From UHGV virus genome UHGV-0069723: DNA of 41,341 nucleotides; one strand, given 5' to 3'. The position numbers were made by a program, and so were the translations under genes. The notes beneath the pieces are model-generated. The model did not search any database. It worked only from the letters and a program-made list of their open reading frames with translations, and was not told the DNA's origin. The DNA comes from a virus. The first letter of the stretch is position 1. Every line of letters starts with the position of its first letter. This document shows, in pieces, positions 10,765-39,362 of the stretch.

Positions 10765-11038
10765 CCTGCAACTTGCCGTTAAAGGTGAATACTTCGATGC
10801 CATGATTCGCGGAGAGAAAACGGAAGAGTATCGCCTGTGTAATGACTACTGGAATAAGCGAATTATGTTCCGGGAGTATGACCGCCTGATTATCACAAAG
10901 GGATATCCGAAGCGCGACGACTCCAGCCGCAGAATTAACGTCCAGTATGACGGATATGAAATCAAGACAATCACACATCCCCACTTCGGTGATAAACCGG
11001 TAAAGGTGTTCGCGATAAAGGTAAATATTGATGGCTAA
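10757..11038 (+). CDS. Hypothetical protein, possibly ASCH/PUA-like fold
   Basis: 93 aa from GTG 10757 with AAGGAG RBS 7 nt upstream; AVKGEYFDAMIRGEKTEEYR resembles the ASCH N-terminal pattern (tentative). Confidence 0.45.
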   Translation: MANLQLAVKGEYFDAMIRGEKTEEYRLCNDYWNKRIMFREYDRLIITKGYPKRDDSSRRINVQYDGYEIKTITHPHFGDKPVKVFAIKVNIDG

Positions 11039-11369
11039 ATCAGCAGCAGAGCGCAAAGCCGCTCAGAGAGCCAGACAAGCTGCATCTGGTGTGTGTAAGC
11101 TGGAAATTGTGCTTGATGCTCAGGAAATTGAAATGCTGGCGCGGAACTGCGCCGCCCGGCGCCCTAGTCGCGATCCCTATGAAATGGCCGAGTACATCGC
11201 GCTGCTGATCCGCCAGGATGATGCACGTGTGCGCGGGCGTATAAAATCGATCAGCAGAAAACTTTGCGGTAAGTGCGGCGAGAGAGTTCCCGTTAATTCA
11301 TGCCCGTGTAATGGTGACTCGCAATGCTGGGTGACTAAAGGCTGGCATGAAACGAAATTAATAGTGTGA
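11028..11369 (+). CDS. Hypothetical protein with C-terminal Cys cluster
   Basis: 113 aa; C-terminal CGKCGERVPVNSCPCNGDSQC suggests metal binding; stop codon lies inside the GTGACATGTCAC palindrome. Confidence 0.55.
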   Translation: MMAKSAAERKAAQRARQAASGVCKLEIVLDAQEIEMLARNCAARRPSRDPYEMAEYIALLIRQDDARVRGRIKSISRKLCGKCGERVPVNSCPCNGDSQCWVTKGWHETKLIV

Positions 11370-11377
11370 CATGTCAC
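11366..11377. repeat. 12-bp perfect palindrome GTGACATGTCAC (copy 1 of 3)
   Basis: Exact copies at 13631-13642 and 31288-31299; overlaps the stop codon of the upstream gene. Confidence 0.6.
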
Positions 11378-13630: not shown

Positions 13631-13642
13631 GTGACATGTCAC
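13631..13642. repeat. 12-bp perfect palindrome GTGACATGTCAC (copy 2 of 3)
   Basis: Identical to copies at 11366 and 31288; immediately 3' of the terL terminator hairpin. Confidence 0.6.
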
Positions 13643-28216: not shown

Positions 28217-30691
28217 ATGAGACAGGAATGTATACAAGCGGTTCAGCAGGCGGCGCAGCGCATGTTAACGGCGCGAGAAATACAGAACATTGAAGACCGC
28301 ATTTATCGAAATATGCGCTCCATTGCTCGTGATGACCCTATATCGTGGCGACAACTTTCCGAATCAGAGCGGCTATATCGAGCAGCACAATTGGCATCTG
28401 AAGAATTACAGCGAGAAGCGGCATTAAAGAAACGTCGTGTGGCTCTCACTATAGCCGCGCGTCAGAGATTGGATAAATTTATCAATAGCTATCAAGGGGC
28501 TGATGGGAAACTTGGCGCTCTTAACCGTACTATAGCTTTTAATGCAGACGGTAAATCTAATTTCCTCTCTGTTGAATCCAGAACAAAAGCCACCCGTGAT
28601 TATGCATTGAGTCAATTGCAGGAGGCATTCGAAGCAGTTGATCCTCGCTTTTTTGGTCTGTTTGAAGATGAAGCGGGCGTACGTGACCTGGTATATGAAA
28701 TGCGGGGGCAAAATACTGGCAATGCTAAAGCAAGAAACGGTGCTAAGGCGTGGAGAGAAGTTACAGAGCTGCTGCGCCGCCGGTTTAATGATGCTGGTGG
28801 GGACATTGGCTATCTCGAAAACTGGGGGATCCCTCAACATCATTCTATGGAAAAGGTTGGGGCAGTATCAAAGGATAAGTGGGTTAGCGATGTTATAGGT
28901 AAGCTGGATCGCAAATATTATATCCGAGCCGATGGACAACTGATGAACGATGCCGAGTTGTCTTCATTTCTTGGAGAGGCTTATAACACGATCGCTACTG
29001 GTGGGCTGAATAAGCTTACTGATACCGGAATGCGAATTTCCGGCGCACGTGCTAACCGTGGTAATGCATCACGACAGATACATTTCAAAGATGCAGATTC
29101 CTATCTGCAATATCAGCAACTTTATGGCGATCGCTCTCTATGGGAAATCATGGTCGGTCACCTGGAAGGTATCAGTAAAGATATTGCACTGGTGGAAACA
29201 TATGGCCCAAACCCCGATCATGTTTTCCGCTCTCTTCTTGATCAGGTGAAGGCAGAAACGGCAACAGCTAACCCGAGTAAAACCGGTAAAGTCGAGCGGC
29301 TGGCGAACAACACAGAGAATCTGTACAACTTTATTTCCGGAAAGACACAGCCTGTAGCGAATCCGCACATCGCGCGATGGTCTGACAATATCCGCAACTG
29401 GCTGGTTGCCAGCAGACTCGGATCCGCGTTGCTGTCATCGTTCTCTGATCTTGGAACCATGTATCTGTCTGCGAAGGTTACCAACCTTCCAATGAACCAG
29501 TTATTCCGCAACCAGCTTGAAGCTATGGACCCAACGAACCGTACAGAACTTGCGCGGGCGCGCCGCGCTGGTCTGGCGATGGAATCTCTACTTGGCAGCG
29601 TTAACCGCTGGGCGATGGATAATATGGGGCCGTCAGTGTCTCGTTGGGCGGCAACGGCGGTAATGCGTGCCAGTGGGCTTACAGCATGGTCAGATGCGCA
29701 CAAGCGCGCCTATGGCGTAACCATGATGGGAAGCCTGGGAGAAGTAGTGTCACGGACACCAGACCTTCGTAGCCTCGATGACTCTGATTTTCGTATCCTG
29801 AAAAGCAAAGGGATTACTGACACAGACTGGAGCGTATGGAAGCTGGCGAAACAGGAGGACTGGGGGAACGGTAATAATATGATGCTGACACCGGAAAGCA
29901 TTATGCGTATCCCTGATTCAGCAGTTAAACATCTTGGTGAGCCTGAACGCGTGAAATTTGAGGCAATGCGTAAACTGCTCGGTGCCGTAACTGAAGAAGT
30001 TGATATGGCTGTTATTACACCGGGAGCACGTGAGCAACTGATAACCGGTTCTGGTATTCAGCGTGGAACATGGAAAGGTGAATTAACGAGAAGTGTTTTC
30101 CTGTTTAAATCGTTCCCTATCTCGGTTGTTATGCGTCACTGGTCACGCGCTATGGGTATGCCGTCTGCTGGTGGGCGTGCGGCATATATTGCGACGTTTA
30201 TTGCCAGTACGACCATTCTTGGCGCTTTGTCGCAGCAACTTAACGACCTTGCGTCTGGTCGTAATCCTCGAGAGATGACAGGAGAAGATGCCGCAAAATT
30301 CTGGCTTGGTGCTCTACTGAAAGGTGGTGGTCTTGGCCTTTACGGTGACTTTTTATTGTCAGATCACACTAGGTACGGAAGCGGCGCGCTGGCGTCGATG
30401 CTTGGCCCGGTAGCTGGTCTGGTTGATGACGTAGTGAAGATTGCTCAGGGCATACCGTTAAATGCTGTGGAAGGGAAGAGTGAGCAGACTGGTGGTGATC
30501 TGGTGAAGCTGGGGAAAGGTTTGATGCCTGGTGCGAATCTCTGGTACTTGAAGGCGGCTCTCGATCACATGATCTTTAACCAGATGCAGGAGTATTTTTC
30601 ACCAGGCTATTTGCGTAAAATGGAGCAACGTTCGAAGAAAGAGTTTAACCAGACATACTGGTGGCGACCACAGGATGTCACTCCGCAATAA
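28217..30691 (+). CDS. Large internal virion / ejection protein
   Basis: 824 aa; last gene of the long late operon before the accessory region. Confidence 0.6.
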   Translation: MRQECIQAVQQAAQRMLTAREIQNIEDRIYRNMRSIARDDPISWRQLSESERLYRAAQLASEELQREAALKKRRVALTIAARQRLDKFINSYQGADGKLGALNRTIAFNADGKSNFLSVESRTKATRDYALSQLQEAFEAVDPRFFGLFEDEAGVRDLVYEMRGQNTGNAKARNGAKAWREVTELLRRRFNDAGGDIGYLENWGIPQHHSMEKVGAVSKDKWVSDVIGKLDRKYYIRADGQLMNDAELSSFLGEAYNTIATGGLNKLTDTGMRISGARANRGNASRQIHFKDADSYLQYQQLYGDRSLWEIMVGHLEGISKDIALVETYGPNPDHVFRSLLDQVKAETATANPSKTGKVERLANNTENLYNFISGKTQPVANPHIARWSDNIRNWLVASRLGSALLSSFSDLGTMYLSAKVTNLPMNQLFRNQLEAMDPTNRTELARARRAGLAMESLLGSVNRWAMDNMGPSVSRWAATAVMRASGLTAWSDAHKRAYGVTMMGSLGEVVSRTPDLRSLDDSDFRILKSKGITDTDWSVWKLAKQEDWGNGNNMMLTPESIMRIPDSAVKHLGEPERVKFEAMRKLLGAVTEEVDMAVITPGAREQLITGSGIQRGTWKGELTRSVFLFKSFPISVVMRHWSRAMGMPSAGGRAAYIATFIASTTILGALSQQLNDLASGRNPREMTGEDAAKFWLGALLKGGGLGLYGDFLLSDHTRYGSGALASMLGPVAGLVDDVVKIAQGIPLNAVEGKSEQTGGDLVKLGKGLMPGANLWYLKAALDHMIFNQMQEYFSPGYLRKMEQRSKKEFNQTYWWRPQDVTPQ

Positions 30692-30699
30692 AAGGAGAT

Positions 30700-30825
30700 A
30701 TGATGGTTCAAATAACTTTTATTGTACTAATATGTGCAGCGTTTTTATGCTATTCATACATTTTGATAAAAATGGGTTTCAATTGGAATCTCTGTTGCGT
30801 GCAGCGGCATGGTTCGGCTTTGTAG
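30700..30825 (+). CDS. Small hydrophobic peptide (moron candidate)
   Basis: Hand-called 41 aa ORF (MMVQITFIVLICAAFLCYSYILIKMGFNWNLCC...) with AAAGGAG RBS; the alternative track frame 30675-30863 is also hydrophobic, so the frame is uncertain. Confidence 0.3.
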   Translation: MMVQITFIVLICAAFLCYSYILIKMGFNWNLCCVQRHGSAL

Positions 30826-30910
30826 TATTCGGAATTGTATTGTTCGGAAGAATAATAAAATAACTAGTTAATTTGTGGATTGGTGCTGTTTTTCCATGAT
30901 AGGGGTAATT

Positions 30911-31291
30911 ATGAGAAAAGTATTTTTGATTTTTGGATTTATGCTTCTCGTTGGATGCCAGTCAGCTGCACAGTTTGAAAGAAATATGCTTACGTGGCGC
31001 GGGCAGAGTATAGACGCAATGGTTCAGCAGTGGGGGTATCCTCAGGGAGAGCTTACATCTCCAGATGGAAACAGAGTGTATGTTTACTCAAGCTCTGGTA
31101 GTTATAACGTACCACAAACCACAACGTATAATACTACGTCTAATCTAATTGGTAATACTATATATTCAAACACATACGCAACAACTGATGGCGGTTATAC
31201 ACTCCATTTCAGTTGCTCTGTTTACGTTGAGTTTGGTGCTGATAAGATTATTAAAAATGTTACATGGCGCGGTAATAATTGCGTTGCGTGA
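30911..31291 (+). CDS. Lipoprotein (moron), possible BamE/SmpA-OmlA-like N-terminal region
   Basis: 126 aa from ATG 30911; signal peptide with lipobox LLVGC; Thr/Asn/Tyr-rich C-terminal half; visibly AT-rich gene; stop overlaps the GTGACATGTCAC palindrome. Confidence 0.6.
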   Translation: MRKVFLIFGFMLLVGCQSAAQFERNMLTWRGQSIDAMVQQWGYPQGELTSPDGNRVYVYSSSGSYNVPQTTTYNTTSNLIGNTIYSNTYATTDGGYTLHFSCSVYVEFGADKIIKNVTWRGNNCVA

Positions 31292-31299
31292 CATGTCAC
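31288..31299. repeat. 12-bp perfect palindrome GTGACATGTCAC (copy 3 of 3)
   Basis: Identical to copies at 11366 and 13631; overlaps the lipoprotein stop codon and abuts a terminator hairpin. Confidence 0.6.
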
Positions 31300-31325
31300 A
31301 GGCCGCTTTCGCGGCCTTGTTTTTA
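31300..31325 (+). terminator. Rho-independent terminator after the lipoprotein gene
   Basis: Hairpin AGGCCGC-TTTC-GCGGCCT followed by TGTTTTT. Confidence 0.6.
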
Positions 31326-31401
31326 ACGAATGCCACCGCCGCCCGGGCGGGAATCCGCAGAACGCCCACCGCAGCGGGAGCCGTCAGCAGCAGTATCGCT
31401 G

Positions 31402-31905
31402 TTATACTATTGAGTTTAATGATATCTTGTCCTTAATATCATTAAGTTTGCCATATATCTTTTTTGCATAAAAATCAGCCTCCTCAATAAACCTCGACTT
31501 CTCATTATCAGGCATATTTTTGAAGGTATGTGCACATGTATATTGAGAGTAGTATTTGTGAAATTCTTGATACGCATTATTGAGTTCTTGTAAGTCTTTT
31601 TTATACTCAGGAAGGTATATGTTTATTAGCATTTCCATCGTTTGCAACGGATTCGCTCTTGATACGTCAAATTTACTATCAGAGTGGTATCTGGCATTTT
31701 TTACGAAATTGAGAATGGTAATTGTGCTTGAATCTATGACTTTTTTAGTAAGTATACAATTTATAAATAATTGCTCGCGTTTATCCCTTAATATTTTTTG
31801 TCGCTCTAATCTTATGCTGTTTTTGTATCCTTGTCCTGCATTTATATAAGTGGAAACTATAGCAATAACTGCACCTATCAATGCGCCTAAGATAGTATTA
31901 TCCAT
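31402..31905 (-). CDS. Membrane-anchored hypothetical protein (cassette gene C)
   Basis: 167 aa from ATG 31905 with AGGTGG RBS; one N-terminal hydrophobic helix (NTILGALIGAVIAIVSTYI) then a Lys/Tyr-rich soluble domain; visibly AT-rich; no motif I recognise. Confidence 0.6.
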   Translation of the reverse strand: MDNTILGALIGAVIAIVSTYINAGQGYKNSIRLERQKILRDKREQLFINCILTKKVIDSSTITILNFVKNARYHSDSKFDVSRANPLQTMEMLINIYLPEYKKDLQELNNAYQEFHKYYSQYTCAHTFKNMPDNEKSRFIEEADFYAKKIYGKLNDIKDKISLNSIV

Positions 31906-31930
31906 ATAAGCCACCTAAACTGCGTAAAAT

Positions 31931-32794
31931 TTATTTTCTGCCACTTCTGTAGTATATGTTGCGACCATTTTTGGTCACATTAACAACATGACCCTTTGTT
32001 TCTACTTTGTTATTTGTTGCCTTATATACTTCAAAGTCAAACCATGATATATGACTTATTTCGTCTATAGATACCATAATTTCTAGACCTTGAACTTTCT
32101 TTTTGCTTATCCCTTTTATCGCAGCACTGCGCTTAATTTGGATTTCACCTGGGTAAGCGTTTGTAAATGTAACAGATAAATTTTCTTTGTTTCTGTACCC
32201 TGACATTAAAGGAACAAAAGATATGTGTTGGTGTGGCCCTTGATTTTCCGTTGGCTCACCAGAACCATTTATTATTCCAACGTATACTTTATTTGATGAT
32301 AAAGTAATTAACATTGGTTTCTTAGGATCTGATTCGATTGCATCAAGCAATAGCAAATCTAAAGAACCCTGGGAGTACGTTTTTCGCAATACCCTAGCTT
32401 TCATTGCCTCTGATATTTTGTCATAAATATCACGTTTATAAAAACAACCTAAAAGAAGATCTTTTAGCCAAACAAAAGATACATAACACAAAGAGAAGCA
32501 AATTGATGTGACTGACAGAAGAAGTAGCCACATGTAAATTCTATCTGTTTCTGGTTTTGACGTTACATTAAAAGTTTCCACCATATCGTGAACTAGGTGA
32601 AAATCAGGATATTTATATTTTATAAATGCGGCAATTATTACCGAAGCAACAAGGCAATATGTACCTAATGCAGCTACTTTCATATAAAGAAGCTGGCCTT
32701 CATGTCGGTATAAACGGAAATAATGATACTGGTTAGCGGTTATCATAATATAACCACTAACCAGAATGGGGATAATTAGAAGAGCTAACAACAC
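31931..32794 (-). CDS. Polytopic membrane protein with C-terminal soluble domain (cassette gene B)
   Basis: 287 aa; three to four hydrophobic segments in the first ~125 aa; probable GTG start overlapping gene A's stop by 1 nt; visibly AT-rich; no motif I recognise. Confidence 0.65.
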   Translation of the reverse strand: MLLALLIIPILVSGYIMITANQYHYFRLYRHEGQLLYMKVAALGTYCLVASVIIAAFIKYKYPDFHLVHDMVETFNVTSKPETDRIYMWLLLLSVTSICFSLCYVSFVWLKDLLLGCFYKRDIYDKISEAMKARVLRKTYSQGSLDLLLLDAIESDPKKPMLITLSSNKVYVGIINGSGEPTENQGPHQHISFVPLMSGYRNKENLSVTFTNAYPGEIQIKRSAAIKGISKKKVQGLEIMVSIDEISHISWFDFEVYKATNNKVETKGHVVNVTKNGRNIYYRSGRK

Positions 32795-34578: not shown

Positions 34579-37335
34579 ATGACGGTCTCAACCGAAGTTG
34601 ACCACAACGAATACACAGGTAACGGAGCTACGACATCATTTCCGTATACCTTCCGTATTTTCAAAAAATCCGACCTGGTTGTTCAGGTGTCTGACCTGAA
34701 CGGGAACGTAACAGAATTGGTTCTGGATACCGGTTATACGGTAACAGGGGCGGGCACTTATAGTGGCGGTTCTGTTGTTCTTCCGTCGCCGCTTGCTGCT
34801 GGATGGCGAATTACGATAGATCGTGTGCTTGATGTGGTGCAGGAGACTGATCTTCGTAATCAGGGAAAATTTTTCCCCGAGGTGCATGAAGATGCCTTTG
34901 ACTATCTGACGATGCTGATCCAGCAATGTTTTGGATGGTTCAGACGTGCATTGATGAAACCATCTTTGCTTGCAAAATATTACGATGCAAAGCAAAACAA
35001 AATTTCTAACCTTGCAGATCCATCACTTGAGCAGGATGCTGTAAATAATCGATCAATGCGCAATTATGTTGATGCTGCAATCGCCGGAGTTGTTGGTGGT
35101 TTTGGTTGGTTTATTCAGTATGGTTCTGGAGCAGTATACCGAACGTTCCAGGATAAGATGCGGGATAACGTTAACGCTCTTGATTTTGTTCCGTTTGAGC
35201 AAAGATATGCTGCATTAAATTTTGAAGTTGATGCGTCTGAATGGTTAATTAATGCGATAAATTCTGGTGCAAGTGTCGTTAGAATACCTGCAGGTAAATG
35301 GATGATTTCTAAGAACATAGATGTGCCTCCTGGAGTGTCTTTAATTGGTGATGGCATTGATTATTGGGATACATATAGACCAGCGCCTGAAAGATTATTA
35401 AAAAGTTGGAGTAAAGGAACCCATCTTGTATTTACTGGTGATGGAGAAAAAAACAAATATTTTTTTAACATCTCTAATGAAAGACCAGTTAAAATTGTTG
35501 AAGGGATATCTTGTAAGTTCACTGAGTTTACAAATGAAGATTCTGTAGGTGTTACTCCTGCTACACCAAAAGCCATGAGCGTAGCTGTTAGTATCAACAG
35601 GGCATCACAGTTACGCAACCTGAGAATAATGGTAAGTAAAAATGGTATTGAAGGATACAATAACCCTGATTCTTATTCATTGGGTGATGACTGGGATATA
35701 GGGTTGCATGTATACGATAGCTGTGATTCAGTTATTGATAACGTACAGATTGTCGGCTATTGGAGGGTAAAAGGACTACTACTGACAGAAAATGACGGGA
35801 GCCTTTCAATGAAGGGAAATCCTGAAAAAACGCACTTTAATAACGTTTATGTCCAGTCAGGGATCGCGATAAGGAATAGCCCTCAGATTGATCTTGTAAG
35901 TAATACTGAAAGCTCAGTGACATTTAAACATAAAAAGTCGATGAGAATAACTTCAGTTAAACAGTTTAAAATTGCTGGCAGTGAATCAGTATATACGTAT
36001 TCAGATGCATCATTTGATGGAGCTAACATCACACTATCTGGTATTTCTCCTGAAATACAAGGTACAATAAGTGTAATCAGGTTTCCGTCAATTGGTAATA
36101 ATTTTAGCGGGACTGTTTTTGAGAATACAGTAGCCACTACTCTTGATCATACATCAGGTAAGCCATCAGAATACTTTGGCCTTCCTGCATCCTTTGCATT
36201 AGAGGTTGATGGTTTCCCTGTTCGTAATTTAAGGTTTGATAAATTCAAAGCTCAAACAACATTTGATAAAGGAAATTGCATTTTTGGTGATTGCCGTGAT
36301 GTTAAAATAACATCATCTGAGTTTGAAAATGGAATTATGATTGCGTATAACCAGACCGAGACTCAGGGTTATACAGGAAATCTTAGATTTTTTGCTTCTG
36401 ATCTTCAGAGCAGCGTTAACACAAGTGAGTTTAAACCAAGAGACGCATTTGTAGACAATAGACAAATAAAAACGGAGTTTACTGATGGTTCGTTCATTAT
36501 AAAGAACTGGAGGCCTACAGATACAAAAATACAATGGTCGTCTGGAGCAGATGCTATTGTTCTTAGAGAGTCACCTGACGAACAATCAGACGGAAATATT
36601 TACGGGTATCACATTGATGGTAAAAGATGGATTAATGTTAGTGGATATAACAAAGATATAAATATTTCATCAAGAAACTTAAGCGTAAAAAACCATGGTG
36701 ATGACTCTGCAGTTATTAATATATTCGGCGACTCTGGAAATATTGCCATTAAAGGTAATTTTTCACCAATTATTGATAACAGCAAATCTCTTGGTGCACC
36801 ATCATTTAGATGGGCACAGGTTTATTCTGCGAACGGTTCGATAAACACATCAGATGGTAGAGAAAAAAGTGAACCGATTAGTACAAGTGAGCTCAGCTTG
36901 TATATGTCTCGTGGTTATGAAGGTGATGCAATTCTGGATGCATGGGGAGATATCAGGATTGTAGCTTTTCGCTGGCTTGATGCCGTCAGGGAAAAGGGAG
37001 ATGGTGCCCGCTGGCATTTTGGTGTTATAGCACAACAAGTGAGAGACACTTTCCTCGCGCATGGGATTGATGGAACCAGATTTGGCCTTCTCTGTTACGA
37101 TGAATGGGATGATAAATACGCGCCAGTGATGGCGGTAAGGATGATCACTAAAGTTGTGGATGGCGTCGAAATTGAGATGGAAGAAGAATACGAAACAGAA
37201 GAGCGAACTCTGGTTTGCAAGGCTGGAAATAGGTGGGGTATCCGTACTGACCAGTGTTTATGGCTTGAGTCAGCTTATTTGCGTAGAAGAATCGAAAAAA
37301 TAGAATCACGTCTTGCAATGCTTGAAAGTAGCTAA
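34579..37335 (+). CDS. Tailspike / tail fibre with C-terminal intramolecular chaperone (peptidase S74-type) domain
   Basis: 918 aa; conserved-looking N-terminal head-binding region; visibly AT-rich central region (~35200-36850); C-terminal ...SDGREKSEPISTSELSLYMSRGYEGDAILDAWGDIRIVAFRW... resembles the self-cleaving chaperone-of-endosialidase domain. Confidence 0.85.
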   Translation: MTVSTEVDHNEYTGNGATTSFPYTFRIFKKSDLVVQVSDLNGNVTELVLDTGYTVTGAGTYSGGSVVLPSPLAAGWRITIDRVLDVVQETDLRNQGKFFPEVHEDAFDYLTMLIQQCFGWFRRALMKPSLLAKYYDAKQNKISNLADPSLEQDAVNNRSMRNYVDAAIAGVVGGFGWFIQYGSGAVYRTFQDKMRDNVNALDFVPFEQRYAALNFEVDASEWLINAINSGASVVRIPAGKWMISKNIDVPPGVSLIGDGIDYWDTYRPAPERLLKSWSKGTHLVFTGDGEKNKYFFNISNERPVKIVEGISCKFTEFTNEDSVGVTPATPKAMSVAVSINRASQLRNLRIMVSKNGIEGYNNPDSYSLGDDWDIGLHVYDSCDSVIDNVQIVGYWRVKGLLLTENDGSLSMKGNPEKTHFNNVYVQSGIAIRNSPQIDLVSNTESSVTFKHKKSMRITSVKQFKIAGSESVYTYSDASFDGANITLSGISPEIQGTISVIRFPSIGNNFSGTVFENTVATTLDHTSGKPSEYFGLPASFALEVDGFPVRNLRFDKFKAQTTFDKGNCIFGDCRDVKITSSEFENGIMIAYNQTETQGYTGNLRFFASDLQSSVNTSEFKPRDAFVDNRQIKTEFTDGSFIIKNWRPTDTKIQWSSGADAIVLRESPDEQSDGNIYGYHIDGKRWINVSGYNKDINISSRNLSVKNHGDDSAVINIFGDSGNIAIKGNFSPIIDNSKSLGAPSFRWAQVYSANGSINTSDGREKSEPISTSELSLYMSRGYEGDAILDAWGDIRIVAFRWLDAVREKGDGARWHFGVIAQQVRDTFLAHGIDGTRFGLLCYDEWDDKYAPVMAVRMITKVVDGVEIEMEEEYETEERTLVCKAGNRWGIRTDQCLWLESAYLRRRIEKIESRLAMLESS

Positions 37336-38264: not shown

Positions 38265-38883
38265 ACAATTCCAGCGAGCTGCTGGTATTAGCGAGGCGCT
38301 GGCCGCACGCTGGTTCTCGCATATAACTTCTGCGATGAAAGAGTTTGGTATCAGCAAAGCAGAAGATCAGGCAATGTTTATTGCTCAAGTCGGGCATGAG
38401 TCTGGGGGCTTCACCAGGTTGCAGGAGAATTTCAACTACAGTGTCAGCGGACTGGCTAACTTCGTTCGGGCTGGGCGTCTCACTCAGGGGCAGGCTAATG
38501 CACTGGGTCGCCATGCTGGTGAACCACCATTGCCACTCGAGCGCCAGCGAGCGATTGCCAATCTGGTGTACAGCAAACGCATGGGGAACAATGCCCCCGG
38601 CGATGGCTGGAATTACCGTGGCCGCGGACTTATCCAGATTACCGGTTTGAATAACTATCGTGATTGCGGAAACGGCCTGAAAGTGGACCTGCTGGAGAAT
38701 CCTGAACTGTTGGCGCAGGACGAATACGCGGCTCGTAGCGCGGCGTGGTTCTTCTCCAGCAAAGGTTGCATGAAGTATACCGGCGATATTGCACGTGTAA
38801 CTCTGATTATCAATGGTGGCAGGAATGGCATCGACGACCGGCGCGCGCGGTACGTCACTGCCAGTAAGGTGCTGGCGGTATGA
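38254..38883 (+). CDS. Endolysin, glycoside hydrolase family 19 (chitinase-like)
   Basis: 209 aa from ATG 38254 with GAGG RBS; [13 protein letters not shown] and [15 protein letters not shown] match GH19 motifs; the track ORF (38023-38883) is extended upstream through the second holin-like gene. Confidence 0.85.
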
Positions 38884-39362
38884 TCTGGGCATTCGTAAAA
38901 GCATACTGGAAACAGTTGATTATCGTGGCAGTGCTTGCTGTTCTGGTCATATCAGGAGTTGTTGCCTGGAATGTACACGGTAGCCGTCAGTACGACGCCG
39001 GGTATGCGCAGGCGAAAGAAGACTGCAAAGCCGAAGAAGAAAAAGTTCGTCAGTACTACGAACAGGAGAAAGTGACCAATGAACGTGAAGCTCAGCAGAG
39101 GATCGACCAGGCGCGCAATGATGCTCTTGATGCTGCCGCTCGCGCTGGCCGGTTGCAGCAACAGCTCGTTGCCATCCGTGAGCAGCTCAGGCACTATAAC
39201 GCCATTGTCGGCGCTGGGTCGTCAGCCGCAGACACCGGAGTTTTGCTTGCCGACGTGTTCAGCAAATCTCTCGAGAGAAATAGACAACTGGCAGAGTATG
39301 CTGACCGGGCAGCCGAAGCCGGAAGAGTCTGCGAAAAACAGTACGACACCCTGACCAGATAG
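38880..39362 (+). CDS. Rz-like inner-membrane spanin (i-spanin)
   Basis: 160 aa; N-terminal membrane helix then charged coiled-coil; start overlaps the endolysin stop. Confidence 0.7.
39079..39354 (+). CDS. Rz1-like outer-membrane lipoprotein spanin embedded in Rz (+1 frame)
   Basis: ORF wholly inside Rz in another frame; lipobox LALAGC after a basic n-region; Pro/Ser-rich mature part; exact start uncertain. Confidence 0.5.
   Translation: MNVKLSRGSTRRAMMLLMLPLALAGCSNSSLPSVSSSGTITPLSALGRQPQTPEFCLPTCSANLSREIDNWQSMLTGQPKPEESAKNSTTP

Follow-up and report, generated by a model that had tools for sequence, protein, structure and literature searches.

We analysed the region at 30692-31325 of the virus genome UHGV-0069723 (41,341 nucleotides, nt; hereafter the window), a Uetakevirus (epsilon15/phiV10-like podophage) prophage of Escherichia coli. 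This region is a swappable accessory slot that closes the late (virion/ejection-protein) operon and extends from the stop of a gp17-like gene to a palindrome and terminator. It appears to hold an inactivated gene for a putative two-helix inner-membrane protein, followed by an intact gene for a predicted lipoprotein of 126 amino acids (aa). We are highly confident of this anatomy of the slot and its contents, which is that of an ordinary accessory envelope-gene slot of a temperate phage. As to function, we tentatively assign the lipoprotein, by analogy, to superinfection exclusion at the step of DNA delivery, at somewhat less than an even chance; taken as a whole, an accessory slot carrying an exclusion lipoprotein is the best explanation of the region and comes close to an even chance.

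The gene upstream of the slot (28217..30691, plus strand) codes for an 824-aa virion protein of core/ejection type, which matched phrog_684 ('virion structural protein') at E=0. As judged from synteny, it is the counterpart of phiV10 p20 and epsilon15 gp17, and it is the last among three large internal-protein genes (837, 600, and 824 aa). Its stop forms the left boundary of the slot, where homology to relatives ends; in comparison with phages carrying other cassettes, the homology resumes at about 31287, next to the palindrome. The sequence between 30600 and 31400 is 99.8% identical to those of the isolated temperate phage vB_EcoP_ZX5 (hereafter ZX5) and of 'Phi05_1387 B', and its matches to phiV10, phiv142-3, and others are confined to the two ends. 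The slot (30692-31287) has a guanine-plus-cytosine (GC) content of 37.8%, against 48.1% for the window and 50.5% for the late operon, and falls within the lowest 6% of 596-nt segments, in agreement with the AT-rich accessory insert that the first-pass annotation of this DNA had placed after the last ejection-protein gene.

The slot was compared among phiV10, phiv142-3, epsilon15, the window, and several E. coli prophages including that of E. coli 1437. The flanks are common to these phages, and the cargo is unrelated. Among 5426 complete E. coli genomes, the phiV10-type cassette, coding for a 46-aa two-helix protein, was found in 54, the phiv142-3-type cassette (a 57-aa two-helix protein and a 98-aa polytopic membrane protein) in about 205, the E. 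coli 1437-type cassette (an unrelated 137-aa lipoprotein) in 22, and the window-type cassette (the broken micro-gene and the 126-aa lipoprotein) in 34. The cassette of the Salmonella phage epsilon15 codes for the 64-aa two-helix protein gp18. At least four unrelated cassettes occupy the slot in E. coli, and the cargo is always a membrane protein or lipoprotein, belonging to PHROGs of unknown function or to no PHROG at all. The 137-aa lipoprotein (MKELLLLSVFLISAC..., phrog_8691; locus L012, 662-1075), which is carried also by UMNK88 and 20 others, lies in the same slot. Since it differs from that of the window, two unrelated lipoprotein families have been recruited to this position. In the RefSeq/PGAP annotation of identical copies of the window cassette, the 126-aa gene only is recorded and the preceding 219 nt carry no called gene. 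An Rfam scan of 30500-31500 matched no RNA family.

The right boundary of the slot is a perfect 12-bp palindrome, GTGACATGTCAC (31288-31299), which contains the TGA stop of the lipoprotein gene. It is followed by the intrinsic terminator of the late/virion operon (31300..31325, plus strand), consisting of a hairpin at 31300-31317, with a 7-bp GC-rich stem and a 4-nt loop, and a T tract. Both elements are present where the first-pass annotation had seen the end of its unit, but they belong to the phage backbone and the cassette has no terminator of its own, because palindrome and terminator are kept in phiV10, epsilon15, and phiv142-3 behind other cargo. The same terminator hairpin is annotated in phiV10 and has a counterpart in epsilon15, and in several unrelated cassettes the stop of the last gene is the TGA inside the palindrome. 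Three copies of the palindrome were found in the window (11366-11377, 13631-13642, and 31288-31299), against 0.1 expected, and no other 12-nt perfect palindrome is repeated there. One copy is at the stop of a gp49-like regulator gene (11028..11369) that precedes terS, another closely follows terL, and the third closes the virion operon; each lies at most about 50 nt from a GC-rich hairpin of terminator type. Both ZX5 and epsilon15 carry exactly three copies at equivalent places, with flanks that have diverged between epsilon15 and the window; the palindrome is absent from more distant lineages still carrying the lipoprotein. An operator for the prophage repressor was rejected as its identity, since the epsilon15 record annotates a different operator, ATTACC-N5-GGTAAT, and the sequence was not found in a literature search. 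Possibly the palindrome is a protein-binding site at transcription-unit boundaries, or a preferred crossover point.

The lipoprotein gene (30911..31291, plus strand) codes for a product that begins with MRKVFLIFGFMLLVGC followed by QSA, with a predicted signal peptide of residues 1-15, the lipobox LVGC, and the predicted lipidated residue Cys16 (codon 30956-30958). The PROSITE rule PS51257 calls for Lys or Arg in the first 7 residues, an uncharged hydrophobic stretch, and Cys at 15-35, with the lipobox pattern [LIVMFWSTAG](2)-[LIVMFYSTAGCQ]-[AGS]-C. The window protein conforms to this rule together with 32 of the 37 homologues scanned, and four of the five exceptions are mis-started or truncated sequences; Cys16 is invariant in the family alignment A1. 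Rule and conservation both point to a Sec-type signal peptide and lipobox in the precursor, and the prediction of a 126-aa lipoprotein in the first-pass annotation was upheld. Of the two findings that this annotation had named as counting against it, lack of a signal peptidase II site and a match to a virion structural protein, neither was obtained: the lipobox rule is passed, and profile searches of Pfam, NCBIfam, and PHROG gave no match to a virion structural family. By the '+2 rule', the residue after the lipidated Cys predicts Lol sorting. Gln at this position predicts sorting to the outer membrane, where the lipoprotein would be anchored facing the periplasm. In addition to Cys16, Cys102 and Cys124 are invariant, and the motifs WGYP, GN.VYVY, and C-terminal GNNC were recognized. 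The ratio of nonsynonymous to synonymous substitution (dN/dS) against relatives was 0.08-0.14, and such a ratio of about 0.1 argues for purifying selection on the gene.

The only PHROG matched by the lipoprotein was phrog_3716 (function unknown), along its full length (E=5e-64, residues 11-126 against positions 1-116 of the 116-position profile). Its close relatives are enterobacterial (37 clusters, 35-79% identity), and the gene occurs in prophages of Salmonella, Shigella, Klebsiella, Enterobacter, and Raoultella. By tblastn search of 50,697 phage records, it was detected in 4 and was not found in epsilon15, phiV10, or phiv142-3. Because of its absence from these three phages, the lipoprotein is considered to be accessory and not structural. 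Nothing meaningful was found in Pfam, NCBIfam, and PADLOC for the lipoprotein, the micro-gene reading frame, or the neighbouring AT-rich reading frames; weak matches to YedD, Cor, and LPAM were attributable to signal peptides. By profile search of 1.84 billion representatives, a wider family was detected with 3,714 clusters at E<=1e-3 and 1,088 at E<=1e-10. These clusters, about 3,700 at 50% identity, are distributed among many Gram-negative phyla (P0042-P0187; L027-L047), with genome matches in Glaciecola, Planctomycetota, Nitrospirota, Campylobacterota, Desulfobacterales, and gut Alphaproteobacteria, and have in common the motifs C-x-T..W.G...WGYP...GN.VYVY...C...GN.C. This breadth indicates that the phage gene is one member of a large bacterial lipoprotein family without a Pfam or NCBIfam entry. 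Apart from local synteny within the gut Alphaproteobacteria, 20 bacterial loci of the wider family had no partner gene in common. Fusions to SHOCT, MORN-repeat, or SH3 domains occur in some members. A weak homologue (28% identity, E=7e-4) is encoded by the Burkholderia phage vB_E332 (locus L008, 5001-5333); its gene is flanked there by the last large virion-protein gene and the tail-fibre region, and is oriented divergently from the virion genes.

The AlphaFold2 model of the lipoprotein (mean predicted local distance difference test score, pLDDT, 85) has two helices packed on a five-stranded meander sheet. Foldseek search gave matches to BamE and, in BFVD, to phage SmpA/OmlA lipoproteins. The mature domain is confidently modelled as a BamE/BLIP-like fold, and the model contains the alpha-alpha-beta-beta-beta arrangement of SmpA_OmlA/BamE. 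At the level of sequence, neither the window protein nor 30 family members matched PF04355 (SmpA_OmlA/BamE) in Pfam at E<=0.05, and a profile search against PDB sequences gave marginal matches only (4h0a at E=0.017). The identity to domains of the BamE/OsmE (SmpA_OmlA), BLIP-like, DUF4309 (YjgB), and CAP_assoc_N groups is 10-20%. The window lipoprotein differs from these groups in its longer sheet of five long strands, its conserved Cys pair, and its GNNC C-terminus.

The position of the lipoprotein gene is conserved among relatives. In most of the relatives from Salmonella, Shigella, and metagenomes, about 10 nt separate its start from the stop of the 824-aa gene; an exception is a Klebsiella phage, in which the gap is about 140 nt. 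In distant relatives of 48-53% identity, the lipoprotein is found in the same place, abutting diverged genes for proteins of 921-1131 aa. Since it is close to or coupled with the upstream gene in most relatives, the lipoprotein gene is regarded as the last gene of the late operon. Two loci, one from Raoultella (L020, 3675-4004) and one from another distant lineage (L056, 4705-5004), code for homologous two-helix proteins of about 100 aa (33% identity, E=6e-10), the reading frame of which overlaps the start of the lipoprotein gene. Such translational coupling suggests a pair of an inner-membrane and an outer-membrane protein. In relatives from Klebsiella, Salmonella, and Raoultella, the spacer that precedes the lipoprotein gene had no homology to the micro-gene of the window, so the junctions differ between lineages. 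In every lineage the GC content of the lipoprotein gene is about 40%, against 52-56% for the upstream gene; its low GC is therefore constant across lineages and does not prove recent import. The tailspikes encoded beside it differ, being of endosialidase type, GDSL lipase, P22-tail, or NAGPA. Because it keeps the same slot beside different tailspikes, the lipoprotein goes along with the ejection-protein module rather than with receptor specificity. These observations altogether indicate that the lipoprotein has occupied the operon end for a long time. The tailspike of the window itself (34579-37335, plus strand, 918 aa) has a Peptidase_S74 'chaperone of endosialidase' domain and a weak match to an endosialidase catalytic domain, and that of a prophage with the identical cassette (L004) is annotated as an endosialidase beta-propeller.

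The proposed role in superinfection exclusion is based on comparison with known systems. On the map of phage P22, sieA lies directly after the last ejection-protein gene (gene 16). SieA is likewise an accessory envelope protein of a temperate podophage, encoded after the last ejection-protein gene, and blocks DNA delivery. It acts on the ejection proteins gp16 and gp20, and escape mutations map to ejection proteins (PMC10883804). SieA differs, however, in being a multi-pass inner-membrane protein and not a lipoprotein, and the two are not homologous. The second comparison is with Llp of T5 and Cor of phi80 and N15, which are likewise small phage lipoproteins with Cys, predicted to be in the inner leaflet of the outer membrane and encoded next to virion genes. 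Llp and Cor are outer-membrane exclusion lipoproteins that inactivate FhuA. Receptor-blocking exclusion of this kind is a plausible and reasonable analogy for the window lipoprotein. A periplasm-facing lipoprotein could not mask the primary receptors of these phages, which are judged to be polysaccharides, and we know of no Uetakevirus that uses FhuA. In the mechanism that we propose, a disulfide-stabilised BamE/BLIP-like domain would face the periplasm and bind a protein partner, and the lipoprotein would disturb either the trans-periplasmic conduit that related podophages build from their ejection proteins or an outer-membrane protein required for that conduit. Its synthesis from the operon would take place late, with possibly a low level in lysogens.

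Several points weigh against this proposal. The argument for exclusion is one of analogy and inference. Llp and Cor have no sequence relation to the window lipoprotein and were absent from its fold matches, and the Cor model NF047972 was matched by only 1 of 30 family members (E=0.045), in a manner attributable to the signal peptide. The lipoprotein gave no PADLOC match, and the consensus scan detected no promoter for expression from the prophage. The tight coupling to a late gene suggests that expression takes place mainly late in lytic growth. Members of the family are common in bacterial genomes outside phages, so that its original function probably belongs to the cell and has nothing to do with phages. 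Finally, the low GC content may reflect an Asn/Thr/Tyr-rich composition and not recent import. The paper describing ZX5 does not discuss the lipoprotein gene.

Among other functions, we considered first a factor for lysogenic conversion or host fitness, similar to Bor/Iss of lambda and without anti-phage role. The outer-membrane lipoprotein, expressed by the prophage, would in this case alter such envelope properties as serum resistance or stress tolerance. The cassette was found in the K1-type extraintestinal pathogenic strains APEC O1, IAI39, and CE10, in line with such a factor, as are the endosialidase-chaperone domain of the prophage tailspike, the fold shared with the stress and envelope lipoproteins OsmE and BamE, and the frequency of the family in bacterial chromosomes. 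The same gene is carried, however, by prophages of the five enterobacterial genera listed above regardless of pathotype and has no similarity to Bor/Iss. In most relatives it is tied to a late virion gene, and no promoter was detected that would serve the lysogen. A host-fitness role is rather unlikely.

An activity in the periplasm of the producer cell during the lytic cycle is a further step down in probability, and we take it to be improbable. Here the lipoprotein would modulate the integrity of peptidoglycan or outer membrane before lysis, or neutralise a muralytic activity. Its place as the last, translationally close gene of the late operon in most relatives agrees with such a helper; BLIP-like and BamE-like domains are typical periplasmic protein binders and inhibitors, and for gp15 an HHpred match to a lytic transglycosylase is mentioned in the epsilon15 record. 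The gene is nevertheless dispensable for this type of virus, as illustrated by epsilon15, phiV10, and phiv142-3, which lack the lipoprotein, and the lysis cassette of the window is complete, including its own Rz/Rz1 pair (reading frames 38880..39362 and 39079..39354; compare epsilon15). Similarly improbable is an extension of the exclusion reading, in which the small two-helix inner-membrane proteins and the outer-membrane lipoprotein, alternating or paired in the slot, would make up an unrecognised family of exclusion factors against the ejection conduit of epsilon15-like podophages, the lipoprotein being recruited from the large bacterial family and the palindrome acting as a cis element for cassette exchange or for the late transcript.

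In the first-pass annotation, the region was taken as a moron, an autonomous inserted unit ending in a terminator. This reading was weighed here in the form of a self-contained and recent moron with two intact genes, its own terminator, and a receptor-masking lipoprotein. In the classical case, a moron brings along a promoter and a terminator of its own and is expressed in the prophage state. Morons of lambdoid phages (HK97 gp15, lambda bor and lom) are likewise non-essential and compositionally deviant, lie between conserved late genes, and often code for envelope proteins. The cassette resembles them in its variable presence among syntenic genomes (four cassette types) and its deviant GC (0.378 against 0.505), and a strong ribosome-binding site and a terminator stand at its ends. 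In contrast to the lambdoid morons, its terminator is that of the operon and no promoter was found: the scan for sigma-70-like consensus promoters gave 5 sites against 3.2 +/- 2.2 expected, with none just upstream of the lipoprotein gene. The autonomy of the unit could not be upheld, as terminator and palindrome are of the backbone, no promoter stands above chance, and the layout in most relatives is that of a late operon. Against the version as a whole stand also the frameshift in the micro-gene, residence of the lipoprotein in the slot for long enough to diverge below 50% identity, and the diversity of tailspikes, from which the primary receptors are judged to be surface polysaccharides. A self-contained recent moron is accordingly very unlikely, and we retain the swappable slot at the operon end.

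The evidence on the micro-gene comes from comparison of reading frames. A Shine-Dalgarno sequence, AAGGAG (30692-30697, plus strand), was read from the sequence 2 nt before the ATG at 30700 and 5 nt before the ATG at 30703. The frame-1 open reading frame (ORF) that follows (30700..30825, plus strand; 41 aa, or 40 from ATG 30703) codes for a single hydrophobic segment (residues 1-25), containing helix 1, and then for a non-hydrophobic, out-of-frame tail, ILIKMGFNWNLCCVQRHGSAL. Its N-terminal 20 residues align with the intact homologues P0038 (54 aa) and P0039 (52 aa), the genes of which lie directly 3' of the 824-aa gene homologue in two metagenomic contigs. These homologues span frame 1 and then frame 3 of the window: the frame-3 continuation DKNGFQLESLLRAAAWFGFVVFGIVLFGRIIK up to its stop (30765..30863, plus strand), representing the loop and helix 2 of an ancestral protein of about 54 aa, aligns with their C-terminal half, and the second hydrophobic segment is present only in this frame. 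Gene callers report frame 3 as part of a 62-aa ORF (30675..30863; P0040). The frameshift site is at 30760..30765 (plus strand), where one base is missing in the T run 30761-30764 relative to the intact homologues; by DNA alignment, a single-column gap was observed in the window and in L024 against L023 and L025. The reconstructed 54-aa fusion matched P0038 and P0039 at 65-67% identity over 96% of the query (E~1e-13), and has two hydrophobic segments against one for each window frame alone.

On this alignment a 1-nt deletion has disrupted the gene, and the 41-aa ORF corresponds to its 5' half. The ribosome-binding site and the hydrophobic ORF of about 41 aa noted in the first-pass annotation are both there, but the ORF is not an intact gene, being frameshifted with respect to its 52-54-aa homologues. 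All 34 copies in E. coli genomes and that of phage ZX5 are of equal length, free of insertions and deletions, and at least 99.5% identical, from which it follows that the frameshift predates the spread of this allele. The frameshift is compatible with a plaque-forming phage. Programmed frameshifting was rejected and the shift was read as a mutation, since the site carries no slippery heptamer. That the micro-gene is still alive, yielding the full-length two-helix product by ribosomal frameshifting or fragments acting separately, is most improbable, even though the allele is fixed in the 34 genomes and a viable phage, the strong Shine-Dalgarno sequence is kept, and restoration of the frame in a relative could hint at selection for translation of helix 2: the site (TAC ATT TTG ATA) does not fit X_XXY_YYZ, transcriptional slippage would call for longer runs than the T4 and A5 present, the uniformity of copies 99.5-100% identical reflects recent common descent and not selection, and PGAP annotates no gene there. 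In the relative concerned, a metagenome contig with the same cassette (L024, 4001-4135), an extra deletion of 26 nt (26+1=27) restores the frame; the 44-aa product (P0041) keeps helix 2 and has lost most of helix 1.

Proteins with two hydrophobic segments are found in the same slot and orientation in epsilon15 (gp18, 64 aa), phiV10 (p21, 46 aa), and phiv142-3 (57-aa ORF), followed, as in the window, by the same palindrome and terminator. They have no detectable sequence similarity to the window micro-protein and belong to different PHROGs or to none; unlike these three, the window copy is frameshifted.

Should the lipoprotein prove to exclude related phages, the few factors that act on podophage DNA delivery would be joined by one that sits in the outer membrane and faces the periplasm, and a first functional handle would be gained on a large lipoprotein family lacking a Pfam or NCBIfam entry. 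As the cassette is carried by K1-type extraintestinal E. coli and by the isolated phage ZX5, it may affect host range in phage therapy. For the present, the re-analysis is of use mainly in correcting three points: the micro-gene is disrupted, terminator and palindrome are backbone elements, and the lipoprotein has long been settled at the end of the operon.

Downstream of the terminator, the minus strand carries the 3' remnant (last 26 codons; 31323..31403) of a conserved gene for a 53-aa secreted or 'transmembrane anchored' protein, with homology ending at about 31402. This remnant is context and lies outside the cassette. The 5' half of the gene was replaced by a second AT-rich insertion (31402-32794, minus strand, 33% GC) with two minus-strand ORFs of unknown function, of 170 aa (phrog_36918) and 287 aa (phrog_3630). 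Neither ORF gave a PADLOC match, and no near match to the insertion was found in the phage collection. The full stretch is present in 8 complete E. coli genomes, and part of it in 30.

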